DNA of 64,000 nucleotides from Thermomonas sp. (GTDB lineage Bacteria > Pseudomonadota > Gammaproteobacteria > Xanthomonadales > Xanthomonadaceae), in NCBI RefSeq assembly GCF_016720345.1, contig NZ_JADKKV010000001.1. One strand, 5' to 3'. A model generated the notes under the pieces. It saw only the letters and a list, made by a program, of their open reading frames with translations. It made no database searches and was not told the origin of the DNA. The position numbers and the translations under genes were made by a program. Positions 28,859-30,415 of the stretch are shown one piece after another. The first letter of the stretch is position 1, and each line of letters opens with the position of its first letter.

Positions 28859-30415
28859 ATGTTCGAGGGACTGACCGAAGGCCTGTCGAATATCGGTGCC
28901 GCCGCCGGCGAGGCCGTGCAGCAGGCGCAGCAACAGGCCGCCGCGGCGGCGGGTGCGGCCGCCAATGCCGCGCAGGGCGCGATCTCCGAAGCGCAGACCG
29001 CGGTCGCGAATGCGTCGGCGGCTGCCGCCGGCGCAGCCAATGGCGCGGTCGCGCAGGCGCAGCAGGCCGCGCAACAGGCTGCCGCGCAGGCCGGGGCCGC
29101 GGCCCAGGGCGCACTTGGCCAGGCCAACCAGGCCATGGATGCGGCACGCAGCGCCGCCAACGACATGGCCCAGAACGCGCTGGCCCAGGCCAACAACGCG
29201 CTTACCGATGCCAGCCAGCAGGCCGGCGCCGCCGCCCAGAATGCGTTGGCCCAGGCCCAGTCCGCGGTCAATACCGCGCAGAACCAGGCCAAGGCGATCG
29301 CCGATGGTGCGTTGGCCGCGGCCACGGGTGCGCTGGAGAACGCGATGGCCACCGCCGAGCAGGCGGCGCAATCGGCGATCGACAACGCCATGGGCATGGT
29401 CGACAACGCCATGGGCATGCTCGAGGACGGCGTCGGCAACGCGCTGGCGGCGGCCAACAACGCGATCGACCAGGCCCAGGAGCAGCTCCGCGACGCCGCC
29501 ACCAACGCGCTGCAGCAGGCACGCAGCGCGGTGATCGACAACGCCCGCGGCGCGCTGGGCCAGGTTGCGGCGGCGCTGGATGCGCTGCCGACCAGCTTCC
29601 CCAACCTGCCGGTGGATTTCCCGGCCTCCGATTGCCCGTACGTGAACAGGCTTCGGGACGAACTCGCGCGGCGTGCGGCCCAGGCCAACAATGCACTTGG
29701 CAATGCGGTCGGGGCGCTGAACGACATCGCCGGGCCGATGCTGGACCAGGCCAGCAATGCGCTGGACCAGGCCAACGGGCTGGCCGACCAGGCGCTGGGC
29801 GCGATGGACGATGCGATGGGTGCGCTCGACCAGGCCCAGGCAACCGCCAACGGCGCCGCCCAGCAGGCACTTGGCGCCGCCAGGACCGCCGTGCAGCAGG
29901 CGCAGCAGGCCGTCCGCGAACAGGCCGGCGCAGCGATCGCACAGGTGAAAGATGCGGTCAATGGCATGAAGCAGCAGGCACAGGATGCCGCGCAGGGTGC
30001 GATCGGCGATGCCATGGCGGCGGTGGATTCCGCGCAACAGCAGGCCGGCGATGCCGCCGGGCAGGCGATCGCAGGCGCCCAGGCCGCGGCCGCGCAGGCG
30101 CAGCAGCAGGTCAACCAGGCCGCCCAGCAAGGCCTGGCGCAGGCCAACCAGGCCGCGCAGCAGGCACAGCAGGCGCTCAGCGGCGCCGCCCAGGGCGCCC
30201 TCAACAACGCCCAGAACGCCGCCCAGGCCGCGGCCACCCAGGCCGGCGACGCCGCCCAGGGCGCGATCGCCAGCGCGCAGTCCTCCATTGGCCAGGCGTC
30301 CGCCGCGGCCGGACAGGCCGCCCAGGGCGCAGTCGGTGCCGCCCAGTCCGCCGTCGCGGGTGCCGCGGGTGCGATGGGCAACGCCGCGCAATCGCTCGGC
30401 AACCTGTTCGGCTGA
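28859..30415 (+). CDS. Ala/Gln-rich hendecad-repeat protein, putative T6SS cargo effector
   Basis: ATG 28859 (MFEGLTEGL) lies 5 nt after GGGAGG (28848-28853), and a hairpin follows the stop. GC3 is very high in this frame, whereas the two long antisense ORFs translate to Cys/Trp/Ala nonsense. 518 aa, almost entirely 11-residue repeats, with a unique Pro-rich central linker. Confidence 0.75.
   Translation: MFEGLTEGLSNIGAAAGEAVQQAQQQAAAAAGAAANAAQGAISEAQTAVANASAAAAGAANGAVAQAQQAAQQAAAQAGAAAQGALGQANQAMDAARSAANDMAQNALAQANNALTDASQQAGAAAQNALAQAQSAVNTAQNQAKAIADGALAAATGALENAMATAEQAAQSAIDNAMGMVDNAMGMLEDGVGNALAAANNAIDQAQEQLRDAATNALQQARSAVIDNARGALGQVAAALDALPTSFPNLPVDFPASDCPYVNRLRDELARRAAQANNALGNAVGALNDIAGPMLDQASNALDQANGLADQALGAMDDAMGALDQAQATANGAAQQALGAARTAVQQAQQAVREQAGAAIAQVKDAVNGMKQQAQDAAQGAIGDAMAAVDSAQQQAGDAAGQAIAGAQAAAAQAQQQVNQAAQQGLAQANQAAQQAQQALSGAAQGALNNAQNAAQAAATQAGDAAQGAIASAQSSIGQASAAAGQAAQGAVGAAQSAVAGAAGAMGNAAQSLGNLFG

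Follow-up and report, generated by a model that had tools for sequence, protein, structure and literature searches.

We analysed a 64,000-nucleotide stretch of Thermomonas sp. DNA (assembly GCF_016720345.1, contig NZ_JADKKV010000001.1; hereinafter the window), which carries a single type VI secretion system (T6SS) cluster. The T6SS core genes tssE, hcp, tssC, tssB, tssA, tssM, tssL, and tssK lie on the minus strand at 4830-15886, with Pfam matches for the first six. They are followed by genes for a GumN/TraB-family protein, a LuxR-type response regulator, and an MltA/3D lytic transglycosylase, which separate the two halves of the T6SS, and then, on the plus strand, by tssF, tssG, clpV, and vgrG (Pfam). 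Downstream of vgrG lie a DUF4123 gene, a gene for a 118-aa protein (118-aa gene), and a gene for a 518-aa Ala/Gln-rich protein, which faces convergent genes for a DUF4280 protein and an OmpA-family protein (Table 1). A first-pass annotation, made from the letters alone, had read the 518-aa protein as a T6SS cargo and its gene as the last of a tssF-tssG-clpV-vgrG-DUF4123 string. The string exists, but the gene does not directly follow DUF4123, as the 118-aa gene, overlooked in the first pass together with the DUF4280 gene and the lack of an immunity gene, lies between them. The cargo assignment gains a genomic context here, namely translational coupling to the vgrG-DUF4123-118-aa string, the same arrangement in 16 of 16 loci, and a distant relative (P0023) in the same slot. 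It is very likely that the protein is a VgrG-loaded cargo of a new family, and we refer to it below as the cargo.

Table 1. Positions of the features discussed, in window coordinates
Feature	Position	Strand	Basis
vgrG spike gene, 708 aa	25664..27790	+	Pfam Phage_GPD 5e-89, Gp5_trimer_C, Phage_base_V
Short DUF4123 adaptor gene, 191 aa	27912..28487	+	Pfam DUF4123 7.8e-30, residues 32-152; frame plot of GC at third codon positions (GC3)
118-aa gene, proposed co-TecT-like co-adaptor	28501..28857	+	GTG start, AAGGAG upstream; pN/pS 0.19
Shine-Dalgarno sequence GGGAGG	28848..28853	+	5 nt ahead of cargo ATG; read from sequence
Cargo gene (proposed VgrG cargo; 518-aa Ala/Gln hendecad protein)	28859..30415	+	Sequence, periodicity, orthologues
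N arm, residues 1-242	28859..29584	+	Conserved N-terminus MFEGLTEGLSxIG, then ~21 hendecads in one register; AlphaFold2 helix 2-241
Possible N-arm hinge, residues 120-126 (QQAGAAA)	29216..29236	+	Low pLDDT at 104-134; LPPNP in L033/L034; P0023 break at 120-124
Pro-rich turn, residues 240-262 (LDALPTSFPNLPVDFPASDCPYV), with single conserved Cys	29576..29644	+	Invariant columns; non-helical at 247-259 in AlphaFold2 model
C arm, residues 263-518	29645..30412	+	~23 hendecads, register shift near 353, conserved C-terminus SLGNLFG
Possible C-arm hinge, residues 394-403 (QQAGDAAGQA)	30038..30067	+	AlphaFold2 break at 400-402; 11-residue insertion in L033/L034; P0023 break at 400
GC-rich hairpin between convergent operons	30434..30451		T-run on minus strand, A-run on plus side
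PAAR-like DUF4280 gene (IglG-like)	30479..30919	-	Pfam DUF4280 3.2e-35; NCBIfam T6SS_IglG 2.8e-20, under cut-off
OmpA-family lipoprotein gene, upstream of DUF4280	30879..31451	-	Lipobox LAAC; Pfam OmpA 4e-23; NCBIfam hits

The cargo open reading frame (ORF) runs from an ATG at 28859 to a stop codon at 30413-30415; these coordinates, the translation, and the strong ribosome-binding site agree with the first-pass annotation. The stop codon of the 118-aa gene (28855-28857) is separated from the cargo ATG by 1 nt, and the cargo gene is translationally coupled to the genes upstream.

At 70% GC, several frames across the region contain long ORFs, as expected. Two antisense ORFs of 688 aa (28336-30402, minus strand) and 564 aa (28748-30442, minus strand) overlie the cargo gene. 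Both are by-products of GCN-rich codons, with stops in most orthologues and no coding signature, and both could mislead gene callers. In a codon alignment of 13 orthologues, the plus frame of the cargo is the sole frame open in 13/13. The average nucleotide difference between two sequences is 0.19 at first, 0.145 at second, and 0.49 at third codon positions, and the ratio of non-synonymous to synonymous change (pN/pS) is 0.29. The five alternative frames have stops in most or all sequences or a pN/pS above 1. The antisense -1 frame shares its third positions with the plus frame and reaches a pN/pS of 0.37, yet it has stops in 11 of the 13 sequences. GC content by codon position (0.79/0.54/0.87) matches that of the genome's genes. 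The cargo ORF is a real gene under purifying selection. The opposite reading, in which a chance ORF in GC-rich DNA hides a true gene on the other strand (the 688-aa ORF), draws on the long antisense ORFs and on the lack of a full-length family protein in the protein collections searched. However, the antisense frames are interrupted in most orthologues, with pN/pS of at least 0.37-2.2, while the plus frame is open throughout, shows the third-position excess, and has the codon-position GC of the genome's genes; the database absence is at least partly an assembly artefact, owing to a break at 29451 in genomes of the same species. This reading is effectively refuted, with a negligible probability.

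Hendecad repeats and predicted fold of the cargo

The cargo consists of A 35.5%, Q 15.4%, G 9.5%, N 7.1%, L 6.0%, and D 5.2%, with 1 Cys, 0 Trp, 0 His, 3 Lys, and 10 Arg, and a net charge of -24. This count agrees with the earlier description of a protein dominated by Ala, Gln, Gly, Asn, and Asp, with one Cys, no Trp or His, and few Lys or Arg. Identity autocorrelation peaks at lags of 4, 7, 11, 15, 18, 22 (z = 12.4), 33, 44, and 55 residues. The hydrophobicity spectrum contains one sharp line at 3.667 residues, with near-zero power at 3.5, 3.6, and 3.75. This peak reaches z = 39.7 in the N arm (residues 1-245) and 27.9 both in the C arm (residues 275-518) and in the protein as a whole, with 300 shuffles as the background for each of these z-scores. 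Thus, the strict 11-residue register that had been read by eye is borne out by periodicity analysis.

Specifically, the 11-residue register continues without a break over residues 23-242. Among orthologues, the N-arm hendecad has Ala at position 1 (83%), position 4 (75%), and position 8 (94%), A/V/L/I at position 5, L/A/I/M/V at position 9, and N/Q/G/D at the remaining positions. Judged by this pattern, the hendecad has an a-d-e-h-type apolar stripe, mostly Ala. The larger hydrophobic residues noticed in the first pass at positions 3 and 10 are those at positions 9 and 5 of our register. The C arm of the orthologues keeps the N-arm register to about residue 352 and then shifts phase near 353. 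There are ~45 hendecads in total, ~21-22 in the N arm and ~23 in the C arm, close to the earlier rough count of 20 per arm. The cargo gene contains no 33- or 66-nt DNA tandem repeat, indicating that the hendecad periodicity is kept at the protein level and does not come from recent duplication.

The unique Pro-rich linker reported earlier between the arms is real and highly conserved. It is among the best-conserved stretches of the protein, with the invariant columns L-P-x-x-F-P-x-L-P-x-x-x-P-x-S-x-C-P-Y, and metagenome fragments share its L-x-A-L-P-x-x-F-P-x-L-P-x-x-x-P-A-S-x-C-P. The most conserved elements of the cargo are all non-repeat parts: the Pro-rich turn, residues 261-280, and the N-terminus.

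We modelled the cargo and P0023 with AlphaFold2 (AF2) from single-sequence or 2-sequence input, which gave models of low confidence (predicted local distance difference test, pLDDT, of 62 for the cargo and 56 for P0023). The cargo model comprises a helix at 2-241, a loop at 247-259, and helices at 260-399 and 403-517, with low-pLDDT stretches at 104-134 and 392-412. The P0023 model is all-helical with breaks at 120-124 and 400. The cargo is accordingly modelled as an all-alpha protein, in which two arms of ~240-255 residues surround the invariant Pro-rich turn.

Foldseek searches of the PDB with both models, a check proposed along with the first-pass annotation, returned nothing at E < 1e-3. 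The hit list of the cargo, headed by 8w20_A, 6h2x, and 7ogt_B, is made up of long antiparallel coiled coils (the UmbC stalk, and arms and elbows of SMC, MukB, and cohesin) and the antifreeze protein Maxi (4ke2_A), and it contains neither ClyA nor Hbl. P0023 resembles designed four-helix bundles only, with ClyA and Hbl at E 0.4-0.6 and a template-modelling score (TM) of ~0.3. Like the SMC/MukB/Rad50 arms and the UmbC stalk, the cargo would pair two antiparallel helices in an arm whose length and point of discontinuity are conserved. However, this is a likeness of shape only, with E > 1e-3, a query-normalised TM of ~0.2, and no head or hinge domains in the cargo. Maxi, the hyperactive type I antifreeze protein of winter flounder (PDB 4KE2), is also an Ala-rich helical hairpin of 11-residue repeats (TMt 0.50), but the match has E = 0.19, the cargo lacks the T-x3-A-x3-A-x2 ice-binding pattern, Maxi has 195 aa as against 518 aa, and its biology is unrelated.

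Hendecads, with 11 residues per 3 turns, give nearly straight helices. Sites near residues 122 and 400 divide the cargo into four segments of ~120 residues, with ~11 hendecads each. From the models and these sites, we infer a hairpin with a conserved hinge, which would be ~35 nm long when extended or ~18 nm when folded back. Such a hairpin geometry alone would explain both the scarcity of indels in the family and an insertion of exactly 11 residues in one sub-lineage.

Searches of Pfam, NCBIfam, and PDB sequences with the cargo found nothing significant and, in line with the first-pass annotation, no enzymatic domain; nor did Pfam and NCBIfam reveal MIX, Rhs, PAAR-fused, or other catalogued T6SS effector marker domains. 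The earlier statement that PAAR is absent is true of the protein but not of the locus, which contains the PAAR-like DUF4280 gene. The analogy drawn earlier with apolipoproteins, alpha-synuclein, perilipins, and group-3 LEA proteins holds in part. A 3.667 periodicity over hundreds of residues is common to all of them, and the mean hydrophobic moment (0.26) and mean hydrophobicity (0.20) of the cargo are similar to those of alpha-synuclein. Family membership, however, does not follow. The Apolipoprotein family PF01442 scores 20.8 bits on the cargo (15-20 bits per half) against a cut-off of 90, and no Pfam LEA hit appears at E <= 10. Compared with proteins of the apolipoprotein/synuclein type, the cargo lacks a Lys/Arg interfacial belt and Pro punctuation between repeats, and its apolar face is mostly Ala; compared with group 3 LEA (LEA_4), its repeats are Ala/Gln rather than Lys/Glu. 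Large hydrophobic residues make up 16% of the cargo, with no long apolar run. Pfam has no phasin hit and no tape-measure domain in it, and there are no transmembrane segments. As for alpha-pore toxins of the ClyA/Hbl/colicin type, the low-confidence models have no fold match to them, and the cargo contains no hydrophobic hairpin or tongue.

Relatives of the cargo and of its cassette

In a 15-billion-protein collection, no full-length family member was found. A word-index search with the full cargo gave only 3 hits, because low-complexity words swamp the candidate list. An exhaustive HMMER search of 1.84e9 representatives returned short metagenome fragments and periodicity-driven hits, plus full-length P0023, and a profile of the central region retrieved fragments only. 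MAFFT alignment of the fragments with the full cargo misplaced the repeats, and a central-region alignment was used instead. Exact look-ups of the window protein, alternative starts, the antisense ORFs, and four intact orthologues found none of them in the collection. The weak hits are 11-residue-repeat proteins, namely P0021 (LEA-like, eukaryotic), P0038 (bacterial, LEA/YtxH-like), and P0031 (Trp-bearing 11-mers), which we take to be tape-measure-like, reading this from its 11-residue Trp repeats alone. Because the weak hits are themselves 11-residue repeats, the search caught periodicity rather than ancestry.

At least two short-read NCBI metagenome-assembled genomes (MAGs) of the same species, with 99.8% identical DNA, break inside the cargo gene at window 29451 (region ~29325-29451). 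One has a 100-N scaffold gap (L018 5541-5640) and the other a contig end (L019), and the gene is deposited as two fragments. The database absence is explained at least partly by these assembly breaks, and the rest may come from different start calls, low-complexity filtering, or the HMMER bias filter.

Scanning one genome per species with the invariant central motif identified 16 loci, all from Thermomonas or unclassified Lysobacterales, including T. haemolytica DSM 13605, T. mangrovi, and T. flagellata. As determined by tblastn, the order MltA, tssF, tssG, clpV, vgrG, DUF4123, 118-aa gene, cargo, convergent DUF4280, and OmpA is the same in 16/16 loci as far as the contigs reach. This homologue survey, which had been proposed as a check of the linkage to vgrG-DUF4123, thus finds the linkage in every genome locus, with the 118-aa gene in between. 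A metagenome scan with a profile of the 118-aa gene added 28 loci, all Thermomonas-type, and no new cassette type. In most of them, a cargo start directly follows the 118-aa gene, and 17 of the 28 contain a full-length copy. No cargo copy outside T6SS loci was found in genome, metagenome, and plasmid searches, and plasmids yielded no tblastn match to either P0023 or the 118-aa protein. Judging by these searches, the cargo family is confined to Thermomonas and close relatives. Since all loci were retrieved via the cargo or its 118-aa partner, its constant presence in them is a biased measure.

Thirty full-length copies of the cargo have 516, 518 (by far the commonest), 521, or 526 aa, with one of 533 aa; one aberrant 230-aa copy was set aside. 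There are no internal indels in the 13-genome alignment. In the wider set, indels define one sub-lineage (L033/L034, also fragment P0001), with LPPNP at residues 121-125, the exactly-11-residue insertion after 393, and three single-residue deletions. The 533-aa orthologue (L013, tail at L013 10939-10987) and the metagenome protein P0002 have an extra C-terminal tail, ...SSM(M/L)AHEAAHVVQQR. It resembles the HExxHxxQQ end of a DUF4157 domain, a marker of contractile-injection-system toxins. In L013, the tail is followed immediately by a stop codon and a terminator hairpin. This tail may be a recombination scar.

The genes of the locus evolve at different rates. In 12 genomes, pN/pS is 0.17 for ClpV, 0.19 for TssF and for the 118-aa gene, 0.28 for TssG, 0.30 for the cargo, 0.41 for DUF4123, and 0.51 for VgrG. 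VgrG and DUF4123 fall into two co-varying classes of identity to the window (62-74%/69-85% and 50-54%/56-60%; L002-L017). In the same loci, TssF and ClpV are 82-93% identical, and the 118-aa gene is 73-83% identical except in the outlier L016. This pattern fits an interface between the VgrG tail and the N-lobe of the adaptor that evolves as a unit.

The metagenome protein P0023 represents a second type of cassette. P0023 (526 aa) is 23-25% identical to the cargo and collinear with it over >400 residues, with E-values of 2e-7 in phmmer (1.8e9 proteins), 2e-11 in BLASTP with composition correction, and 6.5e-5 in hhalign, and is a probable distant homologue. Its composition is ordinary (A 22%, L 11%, with Trp, His, Cys, and Phe), its N arm has the 3.667 periodicity with z = 10.7, and its Pro-rich centre is present, although only F-P-x-x-P of the cargo's turn is retained. 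The P0023 contigs come from gut-sample metagenomes and have 68% GC. Their gene order is tssF, tssG, clpV, vgrG, DUF4123 (179 aa), a 119-aa ORF, P0023, and a convergent classical PAAR gene. Compared with the window, the 119-aa ORF is 47%, ClpV 87%, and TssG 76% identical. It appears from these comparisons that one slot holds two deeply diverged ~520-aa two-armed helical proteins, in a clade with core T6SS similarity like that of the Thermomonas loci. Adaptor pair, VgrG tail, and PAAR type are particular to each version; by analogy, such cassette-like replacement is how effector modules behave.

Loading, mode of action, and competing explanations

In DUF4123 proteins of the Tap type, a conserved N-lobe of ~177 residues attaches to a helix-turn-helix at the C-terminus of VgrG, while the effector is bound by a helical C-lobe that varies (Colautti et al. 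2024, PMC11582642). The two Tap lobes are separate ORFs in TecT/co-TecT, and DUF4123 genes adjoin the effector that is exported (PMC11582642). The DUF4123 protein in the window is N-lobe-sized (191 aa, domain at 32-152) with a separate small ORF beside it, and the C-terminal tail of VgrG ends in two short predicted helices (QQLQAQALRNAALAG-QPF-CAECEAARAAYAALMA). Given these features and the paired evolutionary rates, the DUF4123 and 118-aa proteins look like a split adaptor of the TecT/co-TecT type. The rates would fit two interfaces, with VgrG and DUF4123 varying together, and the 118-aa gene and cargo conserved together. The cargo gene lies downstream of vgrG and a DUF4123 adaptor gene, as do genes for Tap/TEC-dependent cargos, and this linkage is kept in its homologues (the 16 genome loci and the P0023 cassette, mostly from one genus). 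We consider it likely that the protein is a VgrG-tip cargo loaded by a split adaptor.

The locus resembles those of TecT/co-TecT/TseT (Pseudomonas aeruginosa H2-T6SS) and Tap6/Tap14 (Burkinshaw 2018; PMC11582642) in its short DUF4123 gene with a small helper gene, its cargo gene directly downstream, its nearby PAAR-type gene, and its upstream vgrG, as in Tap neighbourhoods. However, TecT docks on PAAR, whereas docking here would by analogy be on the VgrG tail. Five effector neighbourhoods have been catalogued for DUF4123, namely Rhs, Tle, alpha/beta-hydrolase, MIX, and MATE (PMC11582642). The cargo belongs to none of these, is not a nuclease, belongs to no Pfam or NCBIfam family, and is not followed by an immunity gene, so the earlier view that its architecture lies outside the known T6SS effector classes stands. 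Within the literature library searched, we found no paper linking hendecad or alanine-rich proteins, or Thermomonas, to T6SS cargo.

Following the Tap/TecT model, the 191-aa DUF4123 protein would bind the C-terminal helix-turn-helix of VgrG, and the 118-aa protein, as the detached C-lobe, would bind the cargo. The complex would then sit on the spike tip, with the DUF4280 protein as cap, and would be expelled upon sheath contraction. More tentatively, the two arms may zip into an antiparallel Ala-cored hairpin, ~35 nm when extended, and folding at the hinge near 122 and 400 may shorten it to ~18 nm, with four ~120-residue segments. The delivered cargo might act non-enzymatically; the most plausible way would be for it to open and for its weakly amphipathic helices to settle on the membrane or envelope of a target. 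This target might be one that needs no producer immunity, such as a eukaryotic predator or a structure that kin cells lack. The statement as a whole, that the cargo ORF is the payload of a VgrG-loading cassette of the window's T6SS with a split adaptor and a membrane step, has in our judgement a little more in its favour than against it. Within it, membrane action is the likeliest single mechanism, although it is doubtful when taken by itself.

Several observations weigh against this interpretation. Most of the linkage reflects inheritance within a single genus, so that the loci do not count as independent; the one further data point is P0023, with moderate homology (hhalign probability 64%). 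The cargo is conserved like a core component rather than like a polymorphic toxin. The structure models are of low confidence, none of the fold matches to ClyA, colicin, or VasX-type toxins reaches E < 0.1, and arm-to-arm covariation (mutual information in 30 related sequences) is uninformative. An antibacterial effector would be expected to have a cognate immunity gene beside it; none was found next to the cargo, where 63 bp to the convergent gene leave no room, and neither the Thermomonas loci examined nor the P0023 loci have an ORF after the cargo. Since anti-eukaryotic effectors need no immunity gene, this lack lowers the case for an antibacterial toxin rather than that for a cargo. The membrane step has its own difficulties, namely the net charge of -24, the total of 13 Lys+Arg, a hydrophobic face that is mostly Ala, and no transmembrane-like segment. 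Acidic charge, few basic residues, the Ala face, and the lack of a hydrophobic hairpin argue against classical lipid-binding or pore mechanisms, especially on anionic bacterial membranes.

Adaptor-dependent, largely helical, non-enzymatic, membrane-acting cargos are known, for example VasX of Vibrio cholerae with its DUF4123 protein VasW, Tse4, Ssp6, Tme, and TseC. They come with cognate immunity proteins and contain either pore domains of a hydrophobic or colicin-like kind or glycine-zipper transmembrane segments. The cargo differs from the VasX/Tse4 type in having neither a pore or transmembrane domain nor a cognate immunity protein. A membrane-coating or pore-forming action, as suggested in the first pass, is only weakly indicated, and the membrane idea stays alive through the alpha-synuclein-like moment and hydrophobicity. 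Pore formation has no specific support, there being no hydrophobic helical hairpin and no significant ClyA/colicin-like fold match.

Three readings remain live once the core-like conservation, the strict length, and the lack of an immunity gene are all considered. The cargo may be a non-enzymatic effector directed against a target missing from the producer, such as the membrane of a eukaryotic grazer, a spike passenger with a structural or licensing role, or a scaffold that binds through its invariant turn. A structural cargo would be a non-toxic rod that must occupy the VgrG tip for assembly or firing, or that extends or shields the spike, selection preserving its length and shape but not its chemistry. 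In its favour are the nearly invariant length (516-526 aa) in 30 sequences and in the 23%-identical P0023, a pN/pS of 0.30 like that of TssG (0.28), the presence of the cargo in every locus recovered, the missing immunity gene, and a degenerate Ala/Gln composition which suggests that only the helix pattern matters. According to a review (PMC11925235), effectors can also serve as structural building blocks in T6SS assembly. On the other hand, hairpin geometry alone accounts for the few indels, the constant presence is biased by the way in which the loci were retrieved, and the cassette (VgrG tail, adaptor, cargo, and PAAR type) is swapped between close relatives in an effector-like manner. In addition, no T6SS is known to need a 35-nm rod. 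We consider such a structural role unlikely. A scaffold that binds a protein or polymer (host cytoskeleton, cell wall, or a surface structure) through its invariant Pro-rich turn or conserved termini, with no membrane involved, would account for the strongest conservation being in the non-repeat parts (the turn LPxxFPxLPxxxPxSxCPY, residues 261-280, and the N-terminus) and for the missing immunity gene, and the acidic, base-poor composition, which disfavours anionic-lipid binding, would suit it. We nevertheless regard it as improbable, since no recognisable interaction domain or motif match was found, the turn could equally be the site of adaptor binding, and P0023 retains just F-P-x-x-P of it.

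Two further explanations do without a VgrG-tip effector and are both very improbable. The cargo could be a remnant or analogue of a phage tape measure, a protein that occupies the tube with its hendecad helices and is the first to be ejected. It shares hendecad helical repeats and, if secreted, ejection by a contractile machine with phage tail tape measures and with the contractile-injection-system effector Sle1 (PMC13277306), tape-measure-related effectors occur in other contractile injection systems (PMC13277306), and phmmer gives a weak hit (E = 5.4e-5) to P0031. However, this similarity is compositional and arises from the shared periodicity. The cargo has no aromatic 11-mer signature, transmembrane region, or tape-measure domain, a rod of 35-78 nm is far shorter than the T6SS tube, and DUF4123 adaptors load onto the C-terminal tip of VgrG, not into the lumen (PMC11582642), as would by analogy hold for the cargo. 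The other explanation makes the cargo a LEA-, phasin-, or antifreeze-like protein, serving in cytoplasmic stress or surface coating, whose gene just happens to lie within the T6SS locus. The 11-residue repeats, the weak hits to LEA-like P0021 and P0038, and Maxi in the Foldseek list (4ke2_A, TMt 0.50, E = 0.19) point in this direction, while the start 1 nt past the stop of an adaptor gene, the fixed position in the cassette, the lack of Pfam LEA and phasin hits, and the failure to find copies outside T6SS loci point away from it.

Returning to the VgrG-loaded effector, its novelty would lie in the combination of a familiar delivery module (Tap and TecT/co-TecT logic) with an unfamiliar, repeat-built, immunity-less payload of one lineage. 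We also put forward, as a rather unlikely proposal, that the cargo represents a new payload class, a non-enzymatic, immunity-less, fixed-length rod of ~45 hendecads carried on the VgrG tip by a split adaptor and acting by its physical form. The rod might unzip to coat or destabilise a target membrane, much as apolipoproteins, synuclein, or perilipins do, or might serve as a length-defined extension of the spike, its sequence complexity having collapsed to Ala/Gln while selection polices register and length. T6SS effectors have been found mainly via known toxin domains or effector-immunity pairs, and a cargo with neither is invisible to such screens; composition filters may hide remaining family members in databases. 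If secreted, the cargo would add a repeat-built, non-catalytic architecture to the effector repertoire and would provide a second natural case of a split Tap adaptor. It would then also make a clean system for studying how a spike adaptor holds a 500-residue helical rod and what a T6SS gains from an immunity-free payload, e.g. grazer defence, adhesion, or assembly control. The scarcity of indels in a low-complexity protein is a natural case of selection for register and length in hendecad coiled coils. The reach of these implications is limited by the confinement of the family to one environmental lineage.

Neighbouring genes and minor observations

The GC3 frame plot reveals two genes in different frames between vgrG and the cargo gene, the 118-aa gene starting 13 nt past the DUF4123 stop. 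A single frameshifted gene was considered and rejected, as the same two-frame layout is present in all loci and the two are called as separate genes in independent assemblies. The exact DUF4123 protein is annotated in NCBI Thermomonas MAGs; it also matches NCBIfam Tla1 at 1.6e-11, under the cut-off. The 118-aa protein has no Pfam, NCBIfam, or PDB match, other than one chance PDB hit with E = 0.016. No homologue of it was found outside the lineage save the 47%-identical ORF of the P0023 cassette, and the most distant small-ORF match is P0135.

The hairpin described in the first pass as following the cargo ORF is real. Its T-run is on the minus strand, which formally makes it a terminator for the convergent DUF4280 operon, possibly a bidirectional one. 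The DUF4280 gene, on the opposite strand 63 bp past the cargo stop, is kept in all loci. From its sequence, the OmpA-family lipoprotein is probably a peptidoglycan anchor, and would be the sole conceivable candidate for a periplasmic immunity protein.

In the minus-strand half of the T6SS, TssL has a DUF4384 domain in place of an OmpA domain, and no tssJ was seen among the ORFs scanned (window 4830-19798). On the other side, the T6SS adjoins a two-partner-secretion locus (33087-40210, minus strand), which encodes a ShlB/FhaC-type transporter, a protein with a two-partner-secretion domain, and a 1137-aa MBG/DUF5649 repeat protein. A CHAT-TPR protein is encoded next to it at 40018-42255. The MBG protein is syntenic wherever the contig of a locus is long enough to include it.

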